DNA from: Alphaproteobacteria bacterium
Lineage (GTDB): Bacteria; Pseudomonadota; Alphaproteobacteria; CALKHQ01
Assembly: GCA_965227515.1 (NCBI GenBank)
Contig: CBDDFZ010000001.1
Span: 1,952,001-2,016,000, forward strand
Reading direction: 5' to 3'
Length of the DNA: 64,000 bases
Below are positions 1-56,917 of this stretch, one piece after another. The position numbers and the translations under genes are program-made. Positions within the stretch are counted from its first letter, which is position 1. Every line of letters starts with the position of its first letter. Below the pieces are notes generated by a model that saw only the letters and a program-made list of their open reading frames with translations, was not told where the DNA came from and did no database searches.

Positions 1-819
1 GCCGCCGGCAAGAACGTCTCGGTGCAAAAGCCGATGGCGCATTCGGTCGCCGATGCCGACGACATGTGCCGGGCGGCGGCGGATGCCGGCGTCGTGTTCA
101 AGGTGTTCGAGAATTTCGTTTTCTACCCGCCGGTGATGAAGGCGAAGGCGCTGATCGACGATGGCGCCATCGGCAAGCCCCTGTCGATCCGCATCAAGTC
201 CAACCCGGGCGTCAGCCGTGGCGCCTGGCCGATCCCGGCCTCCGCCGAGGCCTGGCGCTTCAATCCCGACACGTGCGGCGGCGGGCCGTTGGTGTTCGAC
301 GACGGCCACCACAAGTTCGCGCTCGGCTGGCACTTCATGGGCCAGGCCGAGGAAGTGCACGCCTGGATCGGCGAGACCAAGGTGCCGGCGGGCGTGCTGG
401 ACGCGCCGGCGATGATCTCGTGGCGGTTTTCGGAGGGGCGGTTCGGCAACATGGAGTGTGTCCACTCGCCCGGCCTGGAGGTCGACACTGCGACGTACCC
501 GCAAGACGACAAGGTGGAGATTACCGGCGAGGAAGGTGTCATCTGGATCACCCGCGGCCACGGCAAGATCGGCGATCAGCCGCCGGTGATCCTCTACCGG
601 AATGGCGAGACCACGGGCTTCTCCGACCTGGAGAGCCACTGGGAGTCGAGCTTCGTGCACTCCACCCGGCATTTCATCGACGTGCTGTGCGATGGCGGTG
701 TGCCCTCGCTGACCGGCGTTGAGGGCCGCGAGGTGCTGCGCTTCGCGCTCGCCGCCCTGAAGTCCGCGGAGTTGGGGCGCGCGGTGACCTTGGACGAAAC
801 CGCGCCTGCGCCGGGATAA
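1..819 (+). CDS. Gfo/Idh/MocA family oxidoreductase (5'-truncated by window edge)
   Basis: QKPMA motif (family EKP), GGGPLVFDDGHH motif; frame is open from the window start. Confidence 0.8.
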   Translation, partial: AAGKNVSVQKPMAHSVADADDMCRAAADAGVVFKVFENFVFYPPVMKAKALIDDGAIGKPLSIRIKSNPGVSRGAWPIPASAEAWRFNPDTCGGGPLVFDDGHHKFALGWHFMGQAEEVHAWIGETKVPAGVLDAPAMISWRFSEGRFGNMECVHSPGLEVDTATYPQDDKVEITGEEGVIWITRGHGKIGDQPPVILYRNGETTGFSDLESHWESSFVHSTRHFIDVLCDGGVPSLTGVEGREVLRFALAALKSAELGRAVTLDETAPAPG

Positions 820-831
820 GCACCGATGCCC

Positions 832-916
832 GTAGCCTGGGTGGAGCGCAGCGGAACCCGGGTTCGTCGCCACCTGCATTGTCAGTCCCCGGGTTTCACT
901 TCGTTTCACCCGGGCT
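832..916. repeat. GTAG-type REP doublet, interrupted at its right end by IS copy 1 (remainder at 2337-2344)
   Basis: GTAGCCTGGGTGGAGCGCAGCGGAACCCGGG...CCCGGGTTTCACTTCGTTTCACCCGGGCT|ACGGGCAT; similar doublets at 27276 and 56833. Confidence 0.85.
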
Positions 917-1180
917 TCTGTAACGGGCCATTGTTGGTCAATCCCTTTTTCGTCGTCCCGGCGCCTGGGTCATGCTTCTGTACGGGGTCGGCGCAGGGCC
1001 GCCGCCAAGATGGATATGCGAGGATCGGTCGGTCCAATCTACGGAAGCGTGCTCTCATGCGAGGCGACATCCCGGATGGCGGCCTGACCTGATCCATCGT
1101 CCCGGCGCGGGACGGCGCTCGACGGGCCGGTGTCGGTGCCCGTCGAAGCTCGTGTGTCGGTTCTCCTTATGCCGCGGCCA
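917..1180 (-). ncRNA. Putative bridge/seekRNA region of IS copy 1
   Basis: Non-coding 3' end of the IS with guide-like matches to target (1069-1078, 1039-1044) and donor junction (1008-1013, 975-982); exact RNA ends unknown. Confidence 0.75.
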
Positions 1181-2224
1181 TCATGCTGTCGCCATCGCCG
1201 GGCGCACCGGTCCGGCATGGTTGAACGGTGTGCCGTCAACCCACATCCGGTGCATGATCACGGCGAGCCGGCGCGCCAGCGCGACCTTCGCCTTCCTCAT
1301 GCCCGCACGCCTGGCCAGCTTCATCGCCCAGCTCTTCAGCCAGCCGCCCTCGATCGGCCGGGTCAGAACCACGTGTGCCGCCTCATAGAGGGCCGAGCGC
1401 ACATCGGCGTCCCCTACCTTCGATATCCGCCCCATCACCTCGCTCTCGCCCGACTGGCGCTTGGTCGGCGTCAGGCCGAAGTGCGCACCCACCAGGCGCG
1501 ACGAGGCAAACCGCCCGGGGTCGTCCACTCCCGACAAGTAGGTCAGTCCGACAATGCTCCCCACGCCCGGCACCGTCATCAGCAGGCGAGCGCGATCGTC
1601 GGCCTGCGCCGCCGCCCGGACCTGCCGGTCCAGCGCCGTGAACGATAGCAACAGGCCATCGCGTGCCGACAGCAGCGCCCCCGCCACCGCCTCCAGTACC
1701 GGATGCCCCGCCACAAGCTCCGAAATACGTGTCGAAAAGCTGCGCCTGGTGGTGTGCCCTACCTTCAGCCCGAAGTTCCGCAGCTGACCACGAAGGTGCA
1801 TCTCAAGATCGTGCAGCTTCGCGCGGAGCTGGTCGCGACCCTTCAAAAGGGCCCGCATCTCCTGGGCCGCCAAAGACTTGCAGTGAACCGGACGAAACCA
1901 GCCCACACGCATCAGCTGAGCAATCCCGCGTGCGTCCGAGCGGTCCGACTTCACCGGCATCGTCGAAAGCGCTCGCGCAACATGACGCGTCTCCAGCAAC
2001 TCAACCGAAAGACCGCCCTCGCTACATCCCCGCACAAGCCATTGCGACAACGGCCCCGCCTCAAGACCAATCCGCTCAACCGAAATCCCCAAAGACCCAA
2101 ACCACAACAACAAACCCGCCGGCGTGCTCGCAATACGAGCCTCGCAGACAATCCCGCCCGCGCCGTCAACAACGCACACCGATGACCATTCCAAAGAAAC
2201 GTCAATCCCGGCATAGTAGTTCAT
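1181..2224 (-). CDS. IS110-family DEDD transposase/recombinase (347 aa)
   Basis: MNYYAGIDVS (D), IGLEAG (E), KSDRSDA (DD); C-terminal GLTPTKRQSG with catalytic Ser; RBS GAGGAG before ATG. Confidence 0.95.
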   Translation of the reverse strand: MNYYAGIDVSLEWSSVCVVDGAGGIVCEARIASTPAGLLLWFGSLGISVERIGLEAGPLSQWLVRGCSEGGLSVELLETRHVARALSTMPVKSDRSDARGIAQLMRVGWFRPVHCKSLAAQEMRALLKGRDQLRAKLHDLEMHLRGQLRNFGLKVGHTTRRSFSTRISELVAGHPVLEAVAGALLSARDGLLLSFTALDRQVRAAAQADDRARLLMTVPGVGSIVGLTYLSGVDDPGRFASSRLVGAHFGLTPTKRQSGESEVMGRISKVGDADVRSALYEAAHVVLTRPIEGGWLKSWAMKLARRAGMRKAKVALARRLAVIMHRMWVDGTPFNHAGPVRPAMATA

Positions 2225-2858
2225 GGTCGTCTCTCCTCGATGTCTTGGAGCGGCAAACCCGACTCCGTGTATGACACCGACATCTTGAGGGACGACCACT
2301 CATGCACGCCACCAAACAAGGGCCGTTAGCCCATCTACGGGCATGAAGGTCCGCCATCTCGGCCAACTTGGCGACAGTGTTGAGGTTGCGGCCGGTGCCC
2401 GTGGCGGCGGCGGGAATGACGAGTTTCGATGGGCCCTGGCCGTCCGGGTAATGGACGTAGATTTCGCGTTCCCCAAGCGCGATCTCCTCGTTCTTGAAGC
2501 CCCTGGCGGTTTCCGCGGCGTCGTCGGGCGGCGGTTGGTCAAGAAACAGCACGATGACCCGGTTCGGCGCGGCGTCCCGGAACGGGTTGCCGGCGAGCAC
2601 CCGCGCCATTTCGGCGGACGTGCGCAGCACCACGCCCACCGGCTTGCCTGTGTGGGCTTCCAGCCGCGATTCCAGCGCTACTTTCACTTGGGCACGCGAC
2701 ACGTCGGCCGTGAACACGACGTTGCCGATGGCGATGTAGGTGCGGGCGCCGGTGAAGCCCGCATCCGCGCATATCTGGCGCAGGTCGACCATCGCGAGCT
2801 TGCCGGTGCCGCCGACGTTCACCGCGCGGAGGAGGGCGATGTAGGTTTGGGCGGTCAT
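2202..2858 (-). CDS. DUF1697 family protein (C-terminus altered by IS insertion)
   Basis: YIALLRAVNVGG, TYI.xGNVVF and TGRNLNTV.KL motifs. Confidence 0.85.
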   Translation of the reverse strand: MTAQTYIALLRAVNVGGTGKLAMVDLRQICADAGFTGARTYIAIGNVVFTADVSRAQVKVALESRLEAHTGKPVGVVLRTSAEMARVLAGNPFRDAAPNRVIVLFLDQPPPDDAAETARGFKNEEIALGEREIYVHYPDGQGPSKLVIPAAATGTGRNLNTVAKLAEMADLHARRWANGPCLVACMSGRPSRCRCHTRSRVCRSKTSRRDDHELLCRD

Positions 2859-2869
2859 CTCTTCACCGT

Positions 2870-2979
2870 CGTCATTGCGAGGAGCGCCAACTGGCGCGAC
2901 GCGGCAATCCAGAGCAACGCATCCGCATTCACGGCAATCGCCTGGATCGCCGCGCCGCTTTCAGCGGCTCGCGATGACG
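2870..2979. repeat. CGTCATTGCGAG-type palindromic intergenic repeat
   Basis: CGTCATTGCGAGGAGCG...GCGGCAATCCA...TGGATCGCCGCG...CTCGCGATGACG; related copies at 26197 and 62181. Confidence 0.8.
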
Positions 2980-2990
2980 CCAATGTGAGA

Positions 2991-4940
2991 CTACCCCGCG
3001 GTCAGGTACCCGCGCTCTTCAAGGTAGGCGACGATGCGTTCGGCCAATGCCTCGGCGTCGTCCTCGGCGGTGTTGACCGTGATCTCCGGGTTCTCCGGCG
3101 CTTCGTAGGGCGCGGAGATGCCGGTGAAGTTCTTGATCTCGCCGCGCTCGGCCTTGGCGTAGAGCCCCTTCACGTCGCGCGCCTTGCAGACCTCAAGCGG
3201 GGTGTCGACGAAGATCTCGATGAACTCGCCGTCCTCCACCAGCTCGCGCGCCATCCGGCGCTCGGCCCGGTAGGGCGAGATGAACGACACCAGCACGATG
3301 GTGCCTGAGTCCACGAACAGCTTCGCCACCTCGCCGATGCGGCGGATGTTCTCCACCCGGTCGGCTTCCGAGAACGACAGGTCCCGGTTCAGCCCGTGCC
3401 GCACGTTGTCGCCGTCCAGCAACTGGGTGTGGCGGCCACGCGCGTGCAGCGCCTTTTCGACCAGGTTGGCGACCGTCGATTTGCCGGACCCCGACAACCC
3501 GGTGAACCACAGCACCACCGGACGCTGGCCCTTCAGCCGGGCGCGCGCCCCCTTGTCGACGTCGAGCGCCTGCAGGTGGATGTTGGCCGCGCGCCTCAGC
3601 GCGAAGCGCACCATGCCGGCGCCGACGGTGGCGTTGGTGTAGCGGTCGATCAGGATGAACGACCCGGTGTCGCGCACCCGCTCATAGGCGTCGAACGCCA
3701 CCGGCTCGGCCAGCGCCAGGTCGCAGAGCGCGATCTCGTTCAGCTCCAGCGTCTTGCCGGCCAGCCGGTCGAACGAGTTGACGTCGGTCTTGTATTTGAT
3801 GTCGGTGATGTGGGCGGCGACCGTGCGGGTGCCGATGCGCATCATGTAGGAGCGCCCGGGGATCATCGGCTCGTCGTTCATCCACACGATCTCGGCCGCC
3901 ATCAGGTCGGCGACATCCGGCCGGTCGGTGTCGGCCGCCAGCATGTCGCCGCGTGCGATGTCCAGCTCGCGGTCCAGCGTCAGGGTCACCGCGTCGCCGG
4001 CGAACGCCTCGTCCAGGTCGCCGTCCATGGTGACGATGCGGTCAACTGCCGCCGGCTTGCCGTTGTCGGCCACCACGATGCCATCACCCGGCGCCACCCG
4101 GCCGCTGGCGATGGTGCCGCTGTAGCCGCGGAAATCCTGGTTCGGGCGGTTCACCCACTGCACCGGCATGCGGAACGGCAGATCGTCGGCGGTCTGGCCG
4201 ATCGGCACCGTCTCCAGGAAGCCCAGCAGGTGCGGGCCGTGATACCAGGGCATGCGCTCGCTGGAGCGGACCACGTTGTCGCCATAGCGCGCCGACATCG
4301 GGATCGCGACCACGGTCTGGAACGCCATGTTGCTGGCGAACGCGCCGAAGTCGGCAACGATGCGGTCGAACACCTGGCGGTCGAAGTCGACCAGGTCGAT
4401 CTTGTTCACTGCCAGCACCACGTTGCGGATGCCGAGCAGGTTGGCGATGTAGGCGTGGCGCCGGGTCTGGGTCAGCACGCCCTTGCGCGCGTCGACCAGG
4501 ATAACCGCCACCTCGGCGGTCGACGCCCCAGTCGCCATGTTGCGGGTGTACTGCTCGTGGCCCGGCGTGTCGGCGACGATGAACTTGCGCCGGTCGGTGG
4601 CGAAGAAGCGATAGGCGACGTCGATGGTGATGCCCTGCTGGCGCTCCGCCTCCAGGCCGTCGACCAGCAGCGCCAGGTCGATGTCGTCGCCGGTGGTGCC
4701 ATGCTTGCGGCTGTCGTTTTCCAGGGCCGCCAGATGGTCCTCGAACAGCACCCGGCTGTCATAGAGCAGGCGGCCGATCAGGGTCGACTTGCCGTCGTCG
4801 ACGCTGCCGCAGGTCAGGAACCGCAGCAGCTCCTTGTCTTCCTGCGCAGCCAAGTATTTGGCGACCGCCTCGGCGCTGTCCTTCTGCGCGTCGGGCGACA
4901 CGACGGTCAATGTGGGCGTGAGCTTGGGTGAGGTGCTCAA
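2991..4940 (-). CDS. cysNC: Bifunctional sulfate adenylyltransferase subunit 1 / APS kinase
   Basis: [21 protein letters not shown] GTPase motif; C-terminal [12 protein letters not shown] and [13 protein letters not shown] kinase motifs; TTG start overlaps the cysD stop. Confidence 0.95.
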
Positions 4941-17744: not shown

Positions 17745-17919
17745 GTCGCCCTCGCCCTTGTGGCGAGGGCCCATCCTTGGCCAACCTGCTGGCGCAGAAG
17801 CAAGCAGTTGAGGTGTCGATGGCCGGATGACCAGCCGACGCGCATCGCGCTGCGCAGCCTCGCCTGGCAACACAATGCGTGGCACAGCGATGGGCCCTCG
17901 CCACAAGGGCGAGGGCGAC
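17745..17919. repeat. 175-bp element with perfect 31-bp terminal inverted repeats
   Basis: GTCGCCCTCGCCCTTGTGGCGAGGGCCCATC and its exact reverse complement at 17889-17919; second copy at 32743. Confidence 0.85.
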
Positions 17920-17947
17920 AAGGATTGTTGGGTTGCGGCAAGGCGCA

Positions 17948-22722: not shown

Positions 22723-24084
22723 ATGGCAAACTTTTTCGGCACCATCGGCACCGACACCTTCATCGGCACGGACAACGTGCAGGACGTCTTCTACTTCAGC
22801 GACACGACACTGGACGGCAGCGACATCGTCGAGGCGGGCCACGGGTTCGAGACCGACGTCATGTATCTCACGGCCGGCACTTACGATGCCGCCATGTTCG
22901 CCGGCGTCGACGGCATCGATGCCATTCGCCTGAACAACAACGCCGGAACGACGCTGACGATTGACGATGCGCTTTCGAGCCAGGGCGGCGTGGCCGCAGA
23001 CGATGGCCGCCTGCTCATCCTGACCAGCAGCGGCAACGATACTGTCGATGCCTCCGGTGTCACCACCGACGGCGTCCACTTCGATCATGGCGGCGGGGCG
23101 GACGTCATCTATGGCAGCCAGGCGGATGACGTGATCGACGCGGCCGTCGGCGGCAGCACGTTGAGCTTCCTCTCGTTCTTCGGCAATGACGGCAACGACG
23201 TGGTCAACACCGGCGTCGGCCAAAGTGCCGCCGGCATCCAGTATCTCGACGGTGGCGACGGGGTCGACGAGCTGCACTTTGTCAGCGGCAACGATGTCCG
23301 GCTCGACCTGAATGCGGCCGGCACGCAGTTCGATATCGACGGCGCGCTGCTGGGCGTCGTGACCAACTTCGAGAGCTATCACGCCGATGGCGTCAGCGCG
23401 GTCATGCTGGGCGACAGCGGTGACAACGAGTTCCATGGTTCCGCGTTCAGCGACACGTTGCACGGCCGGGCAGGCGACGACATTCTGCGCGGCGGCGACG
23501 GCGACGATATCCTGGGTGGCGGCGCCGGCGATGACACGCTGGATGGCGGCATCGGCAACGACATCATCTTCGGTGGCTTCGGCAACGACACCCTGGACTA
23601 TTCCGAGGCGACCAACGACATGGATATCGACCTGGCCGCCCACACCGCGACCGACGGTGTCGAGCGGTTCCATGCCTTCCTGGGCATCGAGGGCGCCATC
23701 GGCGGCAGCGGCGACGACACGCTGTCGGGCGACAACCGCGACAACATGCTGGCCGGCAGCGGCGGCGACGACACCCTGTTCGGCCAGGATGGCGACGACA
23801 TCCTGCTCGGCATGAGCGGGTCGAACGAGGTCCACGGCGGGGCGGGCGCCGACGACTTCTTTTTCATCGACATCGGCAATGGCTACGGCAACGACACCAT
23901 CGCCGACTTCGAGGATGGCAGCGACGTGCTGCACTTCGTCGGCGTGGACTCCGTCCAGGTGGCCGATGTCGGCGCCGATGCGGTGGTCACCATGCTCGAC
24001 CAGTATGGCGTGTCGATCGGCTCGGTGACCGCAACGGGTGCGGCCGGCCTGGTCGACAGCGCGGACTACGTGCTGTGGTCGTAA
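22723..24084 (+). CDS. RTX/hemolysin-type calcium-binding protein
   Basis: Multiple GGxGxDxL nonapeptides, DTIADFEDGSDVL, no Sec signal peptide. Confidence 0.9.
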   Translation: MANFFGTIGTDTFIGTDNVQDVFYFSDTTLDGSDIVEAGHGFETDVMYLTAGTYDAAMFAGVDGIDAIRLNNNAGTTLTIDDALSSQGGVAADDGRLLILTSSGNDTVDASGVTTDGVHFDHGGGADVIYGSQADDVIDAAVGGSTLSFLSFFGNDGNDVVNTGVGQSAAGIQYLDGGDGVDELHFVSGNDVRLDLNAAGTQFDIDGALLGVVTNFESYHADGVSAVMLGDSGDNEFHGSAFSDTLHGRAGDDILRGGDGDDILGGGAGDDTLDGGIGNDIIFGGFGNDTLDYSEATNDMDIDLAAHTATDGVERFHAFLGIEGAIGGSGDDTLSGDNRDNMLAGSGGDDTLFGQDGDDILLGMSGSNEVHGGAGADDFFFIDIGNGYGNDTIADFEDGSDVLHFVGVDSVQVADVGADAVVTMLDQYGVSIGSVTATGAAGLVDSADYVLWS

Positions 24085-24109
24085 TCGCCTAGGCGGCTGA
24101 CGGGCCATG

Positions 24110-24142
24110 ACGCGGCGGGCGGGTCTGGTACCTGCCCGCCGC
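24110..24142 (+). terminator. GC-rich hairpin after first RTX gene
   Basis: GCGGCGGGCGGGT-loop-ACCTGCCCGCCGC; no U-tract. Confidence 0.4.
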
Positions 24143-24446
24143 AGTTGCGTCGGATCCGCAATAAGGCGCGCTGCCCCGCTTTGCACCCGCCCGCGCCACA
24201 CCGTGTCGGTGCCAGGGCTTTTTCGCGAAATCCGAAGCATGGTGCAACGGAATGCCTACCGCTGTGCGTATCAGTGGTCGAGTTCCAATCGCAAAAAGAC
24301 CAGACGCCCGGGATCTGAGGATAATCGACGGAGCTCTTTGACCAGGAACGCGGCCGCGCCCGGCACAGACCGGTGGCTGCCGCCAGTCCCCTGCCTGCCG
24401 AAACTATGTCGCTCGGCGGGCCCAGCGGCAAAGGGAGCTACAAGAC

Positions 24447-26186
24447 ATGACATTTTTCACCGGGACCACCGGCACCGACACCTTCGTCGGGGCCGATTTC
24501 GTGCAGGACCATTTCTTCTTCGATGCAACGACCCTGAGCTCCGGAGATACGATCAAGGCCGGCGGCAACACCGGCTCGATGGCCGATATCCTGCATCTCG
24601 ACGGCGGGACCTACCTGCCCCGGATGTTCGATGGCGTGCACGGCATCGACGCGATCTGGCTCAGCGACGCCTCGACCTTGATCATCGACGATCACCTGGC
24701 GGCCCAGGGCGGCGTTGTGTCGGCGGAAGGCCGCCTGCAGGTGCGCACCAGCATCTTCGACGACGTGGTCGACGCCTCCGGCGTCACCAGCAACGGCATC
24801 ACCTTCCAGTACTACGGCGGCACCGATGTCATCGTCGGCACCGAGCTGTCCGACGAGTACTACCAAATGGCGTTCACCGGCGGCGACGTGACGTTCAACG
24901 CGGCCGGCGGCGACGATTTCGTGCTCATCGGCACCATCTTCGCCACCAGCGGGGTGCAGGCGTTCGACGGCGGCACCGGCGTCGACGAGCTGACCTTGTT
25001 CAGTGAGACCGGCCTGCTGCTGGACCTGCAGTCCCCGTCCCAGCAGTTCGACATCGGCGACGGCCTGATCACCGGCACGCTGGCCAATTTCGAGCGCTAT
25101 TTCGCTCATGCCGAGACCGCGACCATGAACGGCAGCGCCGGTGATGACGAGTTCCATGGCTCTGACGGTGACGACACGCTGTTCGGCCGCGCCGGCGCCG
25201 ACACGCTCAGCGGCAATGACGGCGACGACATCATGCGCGGCGGCAATGGCGACGACACGCTGGACGGCGGCGCTGGCAGCGACACCGCCTACTACGGCAA
25301 CACCGGCGACGGCATGGATGTCGACCTGGAGCGCGCGGTCGACCAGGCGGTCGGCAGCGGCAGTGTCGGCACCGACCAGCTGATCTCGATCGAGAACGTG
25401 GTCGGTGGGCTGAACGACGACATCCTGGCCGGCGACGACCTGGCCAACATCCTCAAGGGACGGTCCGGCGACGACACGCTGCTCGGCCGCGACGGGGCCG
25501 ACACGCTGGTCGGCAACACCGGCGAGGACACGCTGGACGGCGGCAACGATGCCGATGAGCTGCGCGGCGGCTACGGCAACGATCTGCTGCTGGGCGGCGA
25601 CGGCAACGACACGTTGCTGGGCGAGGGCGACGACGACTGGCTCGACCCCGGTATCGGCACCGACACCGTCTCCGGCGGCGCCGGGTTCGACATTGTCGAC
25701 TATTCGGACGCGGCGGTCGCGCTCGACGTCAACCTGTTCACCGGCGTCGCGACCGACGGTGGCGCGCGGTCCCACACCATCGATACCGTCGAGGGCGTGA
25801 TCGGTGGCGCGGCCGGCGATGACCTGACCGGCAACCAGGCGGACAATCTGCTGGAGGGCCGCGACGGCGGCGACACCCTCAACGGGCTTGCCGGCAGCGA
25901 CACGCTGATCGGTGGGTCTGGCCTGGACGTGCTGATAGGCGGGACCGAGGCCGATGTGTTCGTGTTCTCCGACACCGGCGCGGGCTATGGCGACGACGTG
26001 GTGCAGGACTTCGAGGACGGCATCGACGTGCTGCACTTCCAGGGAGTCGATTCCGTGCAGGTGAACGATGTCGGCGCTAACGCGCAGGTCACCATGTACG
26101 ACGCCGGCGGCAACATCCTGGATACGGTGGTGCTGCTCAACGTCGCCGGGCTGGTCGACGCCAGCGACTACGTGCTTTGGGCTTAA
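24447..26186 (+). CDS. RTX/hemolysin-type calcium-binding protein (paralog)
   Basis: GGxGxD repeats; N- and C-termini similar to 22723-24084. Confidence 0.9.
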   Translation: MTFFTGTTGTDTFVGADFVQDHFFFDATTLSSGDTIKAGGNTGSMADILHLDGGTYLPRMFDGVHGIDAIWLSDASTLIIDDHLAAQGGVVSAEGRLQVRTSIFDDVVDASGVTSNGITFQYYGGTDVIVGTELSDEYYQMAFTGGDVTFNAAGGDDFVLIGTIFATSGVQAFDGGTGVDELTLFSETGLLLDLQSPSQQFDIGDGLITGTLANFERYFAHAETATMNGSAGDDEFHGSDGDDTLFGRAGADTLSGNDGDDIMRGGNGDDTLDGGAGSDTAYYGNTGDGMDVDLERAVDQAVGSGSVGTDQLISIENVVGGLNDDILAGDDLANILKGRSGDDTLLGRDGADTLVGNTGEDTLDGGNDADELRGGYGNDLLLGGDGNDTLLGEGDDDWLDPGIGTDTVSGGAGFDIVDYSDAAVALDVNLFTGVATDGGARSHTIDTVEGVIGGAAGDDLTGNQADNLLEGRDGGDTLNGLAGSDTLIGGSGLDVLIGGTEADVFVFSDTGAGYGDDVVQDFEDGIDVLHFQGVDSVQVNDVGANAQVTMYDAGGNILDTVVLLNVAGLVDASDYVLWA

Positions 26187-27275: not shown

Positions 27276-27359
27276 GTAGCCCGGGTGGAGCGCAGCGAAA
27301 CCCGGGAAAATCGGCGCGTCTTGTAGTCCCTGGGTTGCGCTTCGCTTCACCCAGGCTAC
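27276..27359. repeat. Uninterrupted GTAG-type REP doublet
   Basis: GTAGCCCGGGTGGAGCGCAGCGAAACCCGGG...CCTGGGTTGCGCTTCGCTTCACCCAGGCTAC. Confidence 0.88.
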
Positions 27360-32742: not shown

Positions 32743-32917
32743 GTCGCCCTCGCCCTCTGTGGCGAGGGCCCATTTGCGGGGCGGTCCGAGCTCGTGCCGA
32801 AGGAAGCTGGCAAATCATCCCGTCGCAACCAGCCGACGGCCAACTCAGATGCGACTGCCCCTCAACGTATTGAATTGTTGGACAAAAATGGGTCCTCGCC
32901 ACAAGGGCGAGGACGAC
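32743..32917. repeat. Second 175-bp inverted-repeat element
   Basis: GTCGCCCTCGCCCTCTGTGGCGAGGGCCCAT...ATGGGTCCTCGCCACAAGGGCGAGGACGAC. Confidence 0.82.
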
Positions 32918-32966
32918 ACTGGGAGAATTTGTTGAAGTTCGTCGGCTCTAATGAAACGGCTTGGCG

Positions 32967-55392: not shown

Positions 55393-55522
55393 GAGTGAGG
55401 TAGAAAGCGTAGATGGGCTAACGGCCCTTGTTTGGTGGCGTGCATGAGTGGTCGTCCCTCAAGATGTCGGTGTCATACACGGAGTCGGGTTTGCCGCTCC
55501 AAGACATCGAGGAGAGACGACC

Positions 55523-56566
55523 ATGAACTACTATGCCGGGATTGACGTTTCTTTGGAATGGTCATCGGTGTGCGTTGTTGACGGCGCGGGCGGGATTGTC
55601 TGCGAGGCTCGTATTGCGAGCACGCCGGCGGGTTTGTTGTTGTGGTTTGGGTCTTTGGGGATTTCGGTTGAGCGGATTGGTCTTGAGGCGGGGCCGTTGT
55701 CGCAATGGCTTGTGCGGGGATGTAGCGAGGGCGGTCTTTCGGTTGAGTTGCTGGAGACGCGTCATGTTGCGCGAGCGCTTTCGACGATGCCGGTGAAGTC
55801 GGACCGCTCGGACGCACGCGGGATTGCTCAGCTGATGCGTGTGGGCTGGTTTCGTCCGGTTCACTGCAAGTCTTTGGCGGCCCAGGAGATGCGGGCCCTT
55901 TTGAAGGGTCGCGACCAGCTCCGCGCGAAGCTGCACGATCTTGAGATGCACCTTCGTGGTCAGCTGCGGAACTTCGGGCTGAAGGTAGGGCACACCACCA
56001 GGCGCAGCTTTTCGACACGTATTTCGGAGCTTGTGGCGGGGCATCCGGTACTGGAGGCGGTGGCGGGGGCGCTGCTGTCGGCACGCGATGGCCTGTTGCT
56101 ATCGTTCACGGCGCTGGACCGGCAGGTCCGGGCGGCGGCGCAGGCCGACGATCGCGCTCGCCTGCTGATGACGGTGCCGGGCGTGGGGAGCATTGTCGGA
56201 CTGACCTACTTGTCGGGAGTGGACGACCCCGGGCGGTTTGCCTCGTCGCGCCTGGTGGGTGCGCACTTCGGCCTGACGCCGACCAAGCGCCAGTCGGGCG
56301 AGAGCGAGGTGATGGGGCGGATATCGAAGGTAGGGGACGCCGATGTGCGCTCGGCCCTCTATGAGGCGGCACACGTGGTTCTGACCCGGCCGATCGAGGG
56401 CGGCTGGCTGAAGAGCTGGGCGATGAAGCTGGCCAGGCGTGCGGGCATGAGGAAGGCGAAGGTCGCGCTGGCGCGCCGGCTCGCCGTGATCATGCACCGG
56501 ATGTGGGTTGACGGCACACCGTTCAACCATGCCGGACCGGTGCGCCCGGCGATGGCGACAGCATGA
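55523..56566 (+). CDS. IS110-family DEDD transposase/recombinase (347 aa)
   Basis: Identical translation to copy 1; DEDD and SG motifs. Confidence 0.95.
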   Translation: MNYYAGIDVSLEWSSVCVVDGAGGIVCEARIASTPAGLLLWFGSLGISVERIGLEAGPLSQWLVRGCSEGGLSVELLETRHVARALSTMPVKSDRSDARGIAQLMRVGWFRPVHCKSLAAQEMRALLKGRDQLRAKLHDLEMHLRGQLRNFGLKVGHTTRRSFSTRISELVAGHPVLEAVAGALLSARDGLLLSFTALDRQVRAAAQADDRARLLMTVPGVGSIVGLTYLSGVDDPGRFASSRLVGAHFGLTPTKRQSGESEVMGRISKVGDADVRSALYEAAHVVLTRPIEGGWLKSWAMKLARRAGMRKAKVALARRLAVIMHRMWVDGTPFNHAGPVRPAMATA

Positions 56567-56830
56567 TGGCCGCGGCATAAGGAGAACCGACACACGAGCT
56601 TCGACGGGCACCGACACCGGCCCGTCGAGCGCCGTCCCGCGCCGGGACGATGGATCAGGTCAGGCCGCCATCCGGGATGTCGCCTCGCATGAGAGCACGC
56701 TTCCGTAGATTGGACCGACCGATCCTCGCATATCCATCTTGGCGGCGGCCCTGCGCCGACCCCGTACAGAAGCATGACCCAGGCGCCGGGACGACGAAAA
56801 AGGGATTGACCAACAATGGCCCGTTACAGA
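56567..56830 (+). ncRNA. Putative bridge/seekRNA region of IS copy 2
   Basis: Hairpin 56601-56628; guide-like segments at 56669-56678, 56703-56708, 56734-56739 and 56765-56772 inside predicted internal loops. Confidence 0.78.
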
Positions 56831-56832
56831 AG

Positions 56833-56917
56833 CCCGGGTGGAGCGGAGCGCAACCCGGGGCCTTCATTGCCGTGATAAGATTTGTCCCCGGGTTTCACTG
56901 CGTTTCACCCGGGCTAC
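56833..56917. repeat. GTAG-type REP doublet interrupted at its left end by IS copy 2
   Basis: (GTAG)CCCGGGTGGAGCGGAGCGCAACCCGGGG...CCCCGGGTTTCACTGCGTTTCACCCGGGCTAC. Confidence 0.88.

Follow-up and report, generated by a model that had tools for sequence, protein, structure and literature searches.

An IS1111-type insertion sequence of the IS110 family inserts at the GTAG tag of a RAYT-associated REP, with a predicted bridge/seek RNA as its probable guide

How does a mobile element come to sit, twice, at the same nucleotide of a repeated palindrome? The question is raised by 64,000 nucleotides of DNA from an Alphaproteobacteria bacterium (assembly GCA_965227515.1, contig CBDDFZ010000001.1, positions 1,952,001 to 2,016,000; hereafter the window), which contain two copies of one insertion sequence (IS), each within a GTAG-tagged repetitive extragenic palindrome (REP). 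The initial annotation of the window had pointed out this coincidence and proposed that an RNA guide specifies the site. We located copies of the element by BLAST in the genome (two contigs, C1 and C2, 5.52 Mb) and compared their flanks, non-coding regions and relatives. We consider it highly probable (about 0.88) that the element is an IS110-family IS of the IS1111 type that inserts at a 2-bp core in the GTAG tag of the REP, and that a bridge or seek RNA from its 3′ non-coding region would serve as the guide.

The junctions of both window copies can be read directly. Copy 1 (915-2334, minus strand) starts, in the sense of the transposase, with ATGGGCTAAC and finishes with GTTACAGAAG (2334 down to 915). 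Its left flank terminates in ...CATGCCCGTAG, where GTAG is the reverse complement of 2335-2338, and its right flank, which reads down from 914 on the minus strand, begins CCCGGGTGAAACG. Copy 2 (55413-56832, plus strand) follows a GTAG tag at 55409-55412; its left flank terminates in ...AAAGCGTAG and its right flank begins CCCGGGTGGAGCG at 56833. The two copies show no difference over 1,420 nt, and 1,420 bp is the size of the element when it is counted with one copy of the 2-bp core. The left end reads GT-AG and the right end GA-AG, an ambiguity of 2 bp only. Since the ends share just these 2 bp, 'element plus one core' correctly describes what must be removed to restore the start of the REP arm, as the initial annotation had it. 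The core is AG in the transposase sense and CT on the opposite strand. At copy 1 its two copies are CT at 915-916 and CT at 2335-2336 of the plus strand, the latter forming the first two bases of the CTAC tag (GTAG on the other strand) that the insertion has severed from its arm and displaced to 2335-2338. On the plus strand the target at copy 1, where a REP arm ends, reads CACCCGGG-CT-AC. The interval 826-2344, originally assigned to copy 1, holds the element and is too wide: it also takes in the remnant of a REP doublet (832-914) and, beyond the element (915-2334), the CTAC tag (2335-2338) and six flanking bases of unique DNA. The annotation should be divided into REP remnant, element and tag, with the 3′ non-coding region marked as a predicted guide RNA.

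The same junction recurs throughout the genome, in which BLAST located 20 full copies and another with an internal deletion. All 20 full copies show xGTAG / element / CCYGGRTG, in one orientation relative to the arm, and the deleted copy (C1:998352-999210) has the same junctions, giving 21 of 21. What had been observed for the two window copies, namely the same REP nucleotide and the same orientation, therefore extends genome-wide, and tabulation of the flanks revealed neither an unrelated site nor a variable offset among the 21. The 2-bp AG/CT ambiguity at 20/20 junctions, with no longer duplication, is the short core expected of site-specific insertion by the IS110 family. Beyond GTAG the left flanks are unique and all 21 are different; two replicons and both orientations are represented among them. 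To the right of each element is a REP arm, and these arms differ between copies in their sequence, in their spacer and in whether they form a tight palindrome or a spaced doublet. Chance cannot yield 21 identical 12-nt junction contexts. With all 21 copies at one position, this is a type 1 IS-REP association in the terms of Tobes and Pareja (2006). The right end of the most diverged full copy (C1:694743-696207, 89.6% identity) is followed first by a partial REP head, CCTGGATGGAACCCC, and then by a second GTAG with a full REP arm, an arrangement that may be a tandem REP or a footprint.

The repeat itself is a RAYT-associated GTAG REP: a tagged palindrome in many copies, with a gene for a REP-associated tyrosine transposase (RAYT) between inverted copies. 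In the doublet struck by copy 1 (832-914, plus strand) the far arm begins with an intact GTAGCCTGGGTG at 832 and the near arm ends with CACCCGGG at 914. The doublet to the right of copy 2 (56833-56917, plus strand) begins CCCGGGTGGAGCG, and its far arm ends with CACCCGGGCTAC, an unoccupied target on the other strand. An intact, unoccupied doublet of the same family lies at 27276-27359, as initially described, with one target motif per strand. Across the genome the GTAGCCYGGRTG motif is present at 114 unoccupied sites over both strands and at 20 occupied ones, which bears out the suggestion of a multicopy repeat as landing site. The arms of the unoccupied sites are of the types CCCGGGTG (60 sites), CCTGGGTG (33), CCCGGATG (18) and CCTGGATG (3). 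A cognate RAYT gene, for which the initial annotation had advised a search, was found. A search for Y1 transposases returned two genes, one of which (C1:1603908-1604246, in a 175-aa frame) scores 189 bits against the NCBIfam model REP_Tyr_transpos NF047646 (cut-off 80) and is bracketed by inverted REPs at C1:1603786 and ~1604421. It is the cognate RAYT of the target REP. The second Y1/RAYT-like gene (C1:2016998-2017690, 230 aa) lies ~1 kb past the end of the window; it passes Pfam Y1_Tnp at 34 bits and reaches 59.9 bits with the NCBIfam RAYT model, below the cut-off of 80. The inverted repeat on either side of it, GTGACAGTTTACTAAATAC..., is a different one, so that the gene may serve another repeat family.

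The transposase gene of copy 1 (1181-2224, minus strand; 55523-56566 in copy 2) encodes a 347-aa protein of the IS110 family with an N-terminal DEDD/RuvC-like domain (PF01548, DEDD_Tnp_IS110, E = 9.5e-13) and a C-terminal Transposase_20 domain (PF02371, E = 2.3e-20). It scores 237 bits against NCBIfam NF033542 ('IS110 family RNA-guided transposase'; cut-off 140). Among PDB structures, the transposases of IS621 and ISCro4 resemble the C-terminal domain (E about 1e-11); the match to IS621 (E = 7e-11) is weak over the whole protein and confined to residues 209-336. The closest proteins found are 68-69% identical and the closest plasmid-borne Sinorhizobium homologues about 63%, and the nearest matches in named collections are annotated only as 'IS110 family transposase'. 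Transposases of the IS1111 group measure 330-350 aa and carry a GL-P----S(T)G motif (PMC11187229), and here the size is 347 aa and the motif reads GLTPTKRQSG. The distribution of non-coding DNA, with 110 nt upstream of the gene and 266 nt downstream, is likewise that of IS1111, as are the subterminal inverted repeats. The right repeat, GGCCCGTTA (921-929, minus strand), and the left repeat, TAACGGCCC (2320-2328, minus strand), are conserved in relatives; TAACGGCCC agrees with the reverse complement of GGCCCGTTA at 8/9 positions, and the match continues imperfectly to about 20 bp. Outside the repeats the left end extends by 6 bp (ATGGGC) and the right end by 4 bp (CAGA) followed by the 2-bp core, a count that hinges on how the core is assigned; the usual IS1111 extensions are 7 (or 6) bp and 3 bp, and the 7/3 pattern is not reproduced. 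AG directly precedes the conserved left end, ATGGGGTAA(C/T)..., in all 15 relatives with a readable left end.

In the published scheme a bridge RNA makes four guide pairings, the core being part of each, and the RNAs of IS1111 elements lie in the right end, often with the donor nucleotides in a multiloop (PMC11208160). IS1111-type elements carry their non-coding region downstream of the gene; in it the complement of the top strand is 5′ of the match to the bottom strand, and ISPa11 targets REPs (PMC11187229). Two segments of the 3′ non-coding region here correspond to the junctions: CCATCCGGG is the right flank CCCGGATGG in reverse complement, and CCGTAGAT equals the left junction. We predict an RNA of about 150 nt (961-1109, minus strand) with four guide segments. 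The right-target guide CCAUCCGGG (1071-1079) is the reverse complement of the right target and has a G/A polymorphism at 1073. The left-target guide CCGUAGAU (1037-1044) equals the left flank, the AG core and the first two bases of the element, and would pair with the bottom strand. The right-donor guide CCAUCUU (1007-1013) is complementary to AAGATGG of the putative circle junction (right end, core, start of the left end). The left-donor guide is GUACAGAAG (975-983), whose last 8 nt, UACAGAAG, equal the right-end terminus TACAGAAG including the core (56825-56832 in copy 2). Both donor segments are thus accounted for, CCATCTT by AAGATGG and ACAGAAG by the right-end terminus, and on the minus strand the right-target guide stands 5′ of the left-target guide, the IS1111-type order. 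In copy 2 the predicted RNA spans 56638-56786 (plus strand) and its guides 56668-56676, 56703-56710, 56734-56740 and 56764-56772.

To model the structure, we aligned the 3′ non-coding regions of 13 relatives (43-69% protein identity) with those of two copies in this genome. The RNAalifold consensus of these 15 sequences has four helices with 20 pairs. Helix 1 closes the RNA at 961-1109 around a target-binding domain and a donor-binding multiloop. Helix 2 encloses the target domain, with CCAUCCGGG on the 5′ side and CCGUAGAU on the 3′ side, and helices 3 and 4 form a hairpin between CCAUCUU and GUACAGAAG in the multiloop. All four guides fall in unpaired stretches, as guides in loops should. 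By pair counting, 92.9% of cells are paired compared with 76.4% in shuffled alignments, and 0/500 shuffles reach the observed value, statistics that are inflated and generous because close kin are among the 15 sequences (the two from this genome and a cluster of five). Compensatory change, with both sides altered, was seen in 13/20 pairs, and in slid controls, in which the partners were moved by 1-3 columns, at most 53% were paired. Firmer support for the RNA structure than the shuffles comes from the slid control and from columns in which several independent pair types occur.

Variation among the copies in this genome connects the guide to the site. The copies fall into two subfamilies, of 1,420 nt and 1,429 nt, which are one base apart in the right-target guide (CCAUCCGGG or CCAUCCAGG; window position 1073 in copy 1). 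The 13 copies with the G-type guide CCAUCCGGG occupy CCCGGATG arms nine times, CCCGGGTG twice, CCTGGGTG twice and CCTGGATG never. The seven with the A-type guide CCAUCCAGG are at CCTGGGTG (six) and CCTGGATG (one), with none at CCCGGATG or CCCGGGTG. Copies with the G guide therefore lie mostly at CCC-type arms, and every copy with the A guide is at a CCT-type arm (Fisher p = 4.6e-4 for the association of guide G/A with target C/T in the 20 full copies). Measured against availability, 9/13 G-type copies are at a site type that makes up 27/134 sites (binomial p = 1.8e-4), and 7/7 A-type copies at types that make up 45/134 (p = 4.8e-4). Over the first eight positions all guide-target pairs are Watson-Crick or G:U/U:G, and tolerance of G:U and U:G wobble would make several REP variants usable. 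Sites with perfect 9-nt complementarity to the G guide are occupied in 7 cases and empty in 10; those with one wobble are occupied in 1 and empty in 48. Both window copies lie in the less-favoured CCCGGGTG class.

Three mosaic copies separate the gene from the non-coding region. C1:927759 combines a G-type gene body with an A-type non-coding region and is located in a CCT site, while C1:1656598 and C2:1239890 have A-type single-nucleotide polymorphisms in the gene body, a G-type non-coding region and CCCGGATG sites. The preference thus follows the non-coding region rather than the gene body. The odds, as we see them, lie slightly in favour of two co-resident lineages dividing one REP family by a one-base guide change, with wobble setting the limits of their range. 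If true, this would be natural single-nucleotide retargeting within one genome, and the mosaics would amount to swap experiments of nature, with specificity located in the RNA region.

Comparison across genomes extends the relationship to unrelated targets. Among relatives compared at the aligned guide position, in L049 CATGCGGG faces the right flank CCCGCATG, in L046 AATCCGCC faces GGCGGATT, in L062 CAAACCTT faces AAGGTTTG and in L067 GTAGTG faces CACTAC; in L055, L057, L060 and L068 guides from ATGTCCG up to CGCATGTCCG face CGGACATG.... At least six contiguous complementary nucleotides are found in 8/13 cognate pairs and in 3/134 non-cognate pairs of different target classes. The right end of L045 is missing. 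The left guide matches its own left flank in L056 (CCCGATAG) and in L057 and L059 (CACTTAG). A longest-common-substring test of this short guide did not separate cognate from non-cognate pairs (28/134 non-cognate pairs reach at least 4 nt), so that the support for the left guide is the anchored matches in L056, L057, L059 and the copies of this genome. The left-donor guide changes with the right-end terminus, being ACAGAAG here, AGAGAAG in the L055 group and AGCGAAG in L062, and the right-donor guide covaries too (L055 group, L062). The proposal that a guide RNA specifies the site is supported by these comparisons of sequence: guide segments match the flanks, the G/A polymorphism tracks the C/T of the target and the guides of relatives differ accordingly.

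From these data we infer that the RNA of about 150 nt is made, that the transposase binds it and that pairing is the cause of site choice. The element consists of a short left end, the transposase gene and a long right-end non-coding region, with subterminal inverted repeats, and insertion would be site-specific recombination at the 2-bp core (AG/CT) inside the GTAG tag of each RAYT-associated REP arm. The RNA, transcribed downstream of the transposase gene, would act as a bridge or seek RNA. In its target domain CCGUAG(AU) may pair with the bottom strand left of the core, and the 9-nt right-target guide probably supplies most of the specificity. In the multiloop domain CCAUCUU and ACAGAAG would each pair with one side of the junction at which the element ends meet, a circular intermediate being expected to join the right end to the left. 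The two co-resident subfamilies, one guide base apart, use different REP variants.

Several observations fit RNA guidance poorly or deprive it of support. Four G-type copies are at sites that need one or two wobbles, and two of these four, C1:392227 and C1:3233658, fit the A guide better. The two are at CCTGGGTGA arms, with which the A guide forms seven Watson-Crick pairs and one wobble and the G guide six and two; it is possible that they were inserted in trans by the RNA of the other subfamily, and guide RNAs would then be common to lineages with identical ends. Among the relatives, L048 fits neither target guide and L056 fits the left guide only (CCCGAT, 6 nt upstream of the core; CCCGATAG with the core). 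The guide has AU where the complement of the core is CU, and the published IS621 pairing takes in the core. We looked for a base preference 5 nt to the left of the insertion and rejected it: C is found there in 15/20 occupied sites and in 86/123 GTAGCCNGGNTG motifs (a broader pattern). As the frequencies are alike, there is no sign of a preference for left-side pairs further out than GT, and pairing on this side seems to need just GT and the core. In addition to the close kin in the alignment, the RNA model has to reckon with a search of Rfam 15 (E up to 1) that returned no bridge RNA family, only two sub-threshold matches of miRNA models on the palindrome of the REP doublet. The single-sequence fold of the 3′ non-coding region is unremarkable and uninformative (z = -1.58), so it is the comparative data that carry the RNA structure.

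Nor was an empty allele found in related strains, and the 'empty sites' above are paralogous REPs. The element is absent at the DNA level from three same-family genomes, and 40 relatives gave three short weak matches. Four sequencing runs of other organisms, compared with window 1-3400, contain the element (about 910-2338) and lack the flanks of copy 1, with no contig across the element. A metagenome scan with the neighbouring DUF1697 protein gave nothing above 66% identity among the 80 loci kept.

Could the transposase alone read the REP hairpin or the GTAG tag, the complementary RNA segments being incidental? The target is a strong palindrome, and for ISPpu10 a target stem-loop is reported to add specificity beyond base pairing (preprint 10.64898/2026.03.19.712850). 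Since it is the 5′ arm of the REP hairpin that forms the right flank, a structural contribution to recognition is plausible here. We nevertheless regard recognition by protein only as improbable: a single-base difference in the guide tracks the REP variant, the mosaics follow the non-coding region, and relatives with conserved protein and ends occupy unrelated sequences that match their own guides. Those relatives, in which the same ends adjoin unrelated flanks, bear equally on the idea that the right-hand REP is carried in a larger mobile unit, so that the shared flank would reflect co-mobilization and not target choice. Several occupied CCCGGATG doublets do have a similar spacer (...GAGGTGAAGGTATGT...), and ISPpu9 has been reported to move in modular forms (PMC12288879). 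However, the right flanks vary in arm, spacer and form while the ends of the element are invariant, the left flanks have only GTAG in common before unique DNA begins, and the 114 unoccupied motifs include CCCGGATG doublets that resemble occupied ones in arm sequence and spaced form. Co-mobilization is accordingly even harder to credit than protein-only recognition.

The mosaic copies prove that recombination or gene conversion between copies occurs, and could be taken to mean that the element spreads by segmental duplication or by homologous recombination between REPs instead of transposition. With 21 different unique left flanks on two replicons and in both orientations, and with boundaries exact to the base, this is to our mind the least probable of the three alternatives. 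RNA-guided insertion at the REP core remains the reading that we prefer.

The first copy also bears on the description of the REP as a 'safe harbour' in the initial annotation, which is apt only in part. A DUF1697 reading frame (Pfam; window 2202-2858, minus strand) crosses the junction of copy 1 into the element, so that the last few residues of its C-terminus are replaced by a longer, element-encoded tail. The REP site at copy 1 is not strictly intergenic.

With respect to expression of the element, a simple scan of 800-2450 found no sigma-70-like promoter. A TTGAC at window 936-941 (minus strand), some 35 nt inside the right end, is conserved among 13/15 aligned elements. By analogy with IS621, in which a natural sigma-70 promoter is formed when the ends join (PMC11208160), it may be the -35 half of a promoter that is completed on end joining; no -10 partner was identified for it. 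The 5′ untranslated region (window 2225-2300, minus strand) folds into a long hairpin (minimum free energy -49.1 kcal/mol, z = -2.67) in which the ribosome-binding site, GAGGAGAG, is paired with CCCUC further upstream and whose arms look conserved in relatives. It may provide translational control of the kind reported for ISPpu9. Elsewhere in the window, copies of a different hairpin repeat, GTCGCCCTCGCCCTTGTGGCGAGGGC..., lie at 17745-17785, 17879-17920 and 32877-32918, and 23437-25943 contains runs of a periodic repeat (27 nt, 22 units) in which GGCGACGAC is abundant; this is how RTX-type nonapeptide calcium-binding repeats look in the gene of a large secreted protein.

The element is a further REP-targeting member of the IS110/IS1111 family, whose behaviour has already been published for IS621, ISPa11, ISPpu9/10 and ISRm19. 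REP targeting and RNA-guided site choice are both established, and no new principle is therefore added. Its modest extra value is in the two guide alleles that divide REP variants within one genome, a case of guide drift tracking variation of the target repeat, and in the comparative RNA model (15 sequences, four covarying helices) for this branch of the family, whose RNA Rfam 15 did not detect. The 21 insertions, the 114 free sites and the known RAYT make a convenient natural data set on the tolerance of a guide (perfect, wobble, mismatch).

The initial annotation had cited IS621 as precedent. Experiments are said to have shown insertion of IS621 into REPs, and its target is the ...GGCCTAC-type end of the REP. 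It stands as a REP-targeting member of the IS110 family, but the layout here is of the IS1111 type, for which ISPa11 is the closer precedent (PMC11187229). Like the element described here, IS621 of Escherichia coli (IS110 group) has a DEDD plus serine-domain recombinase, a CT core and four guide segments (PMC11208160). In IS621, however, the RNA is in the left end upstream of the gene and the order of the guides is reversed, whereas here it is downstream. IS621 has subterminal repeats of 2-3 bp and a simple internal donor loop; here the repeats are at least 9 bp and the donor guides are in a multiloop. RNA guidance of the family was shown in 2024 (PMC11208160; PMC11187229).

The GTAG-tagged REPs with RAYTs described by Di Nocera et al. 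(2013; PMC3733652) resemble the target in the GTAG tag, the GC-rich hairpin, the inverted doublets and the REP-flanked RAYT gene. In that article, IS targeting of REPs is present only as a citation of Tobes and Pareja, and the term 'IS110' is absent. The type 1 association itself was catalogued in 2006, with all copies of the IS110-family elements ISPa11, ISPpu9, ISPpu10 and ISRm19 at one REP position (PMC1525189). For ISPa11 (Pseudomonas aeruginosa) 6/6 copies lie between REP bases 6 and 7, and ISPpu9 (7/7) and ISPpu10 (7/7) of Pseudomonas putida and ISRm19 of Sinorhizobium meliloti (4/4) are at the same REP position, with a 2-bp repeat at the insertion point of ISPpu9 and ISPpu10 (PMC1525189). 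ISPa11 shares with the present element the IS1111 layout, the single position near the start of the REP and the complement of the top strand 5′ of the match to the bottom strand (PMC11187229; PMC1525189). Its seekRNA, from the non-coding region, co-purifies with the transposase (PMC11187229), whereas the RNA here is predicted, the host is alphaproteobacterial and the REP sequence is different. ISPpu9, ISPpu10 and ISRm19, the last also alphaproteobacterial, likewise have all their copies at one REP position; the present element differs from them in its higher copy number (21) and in the coexistence of two guide alleles.

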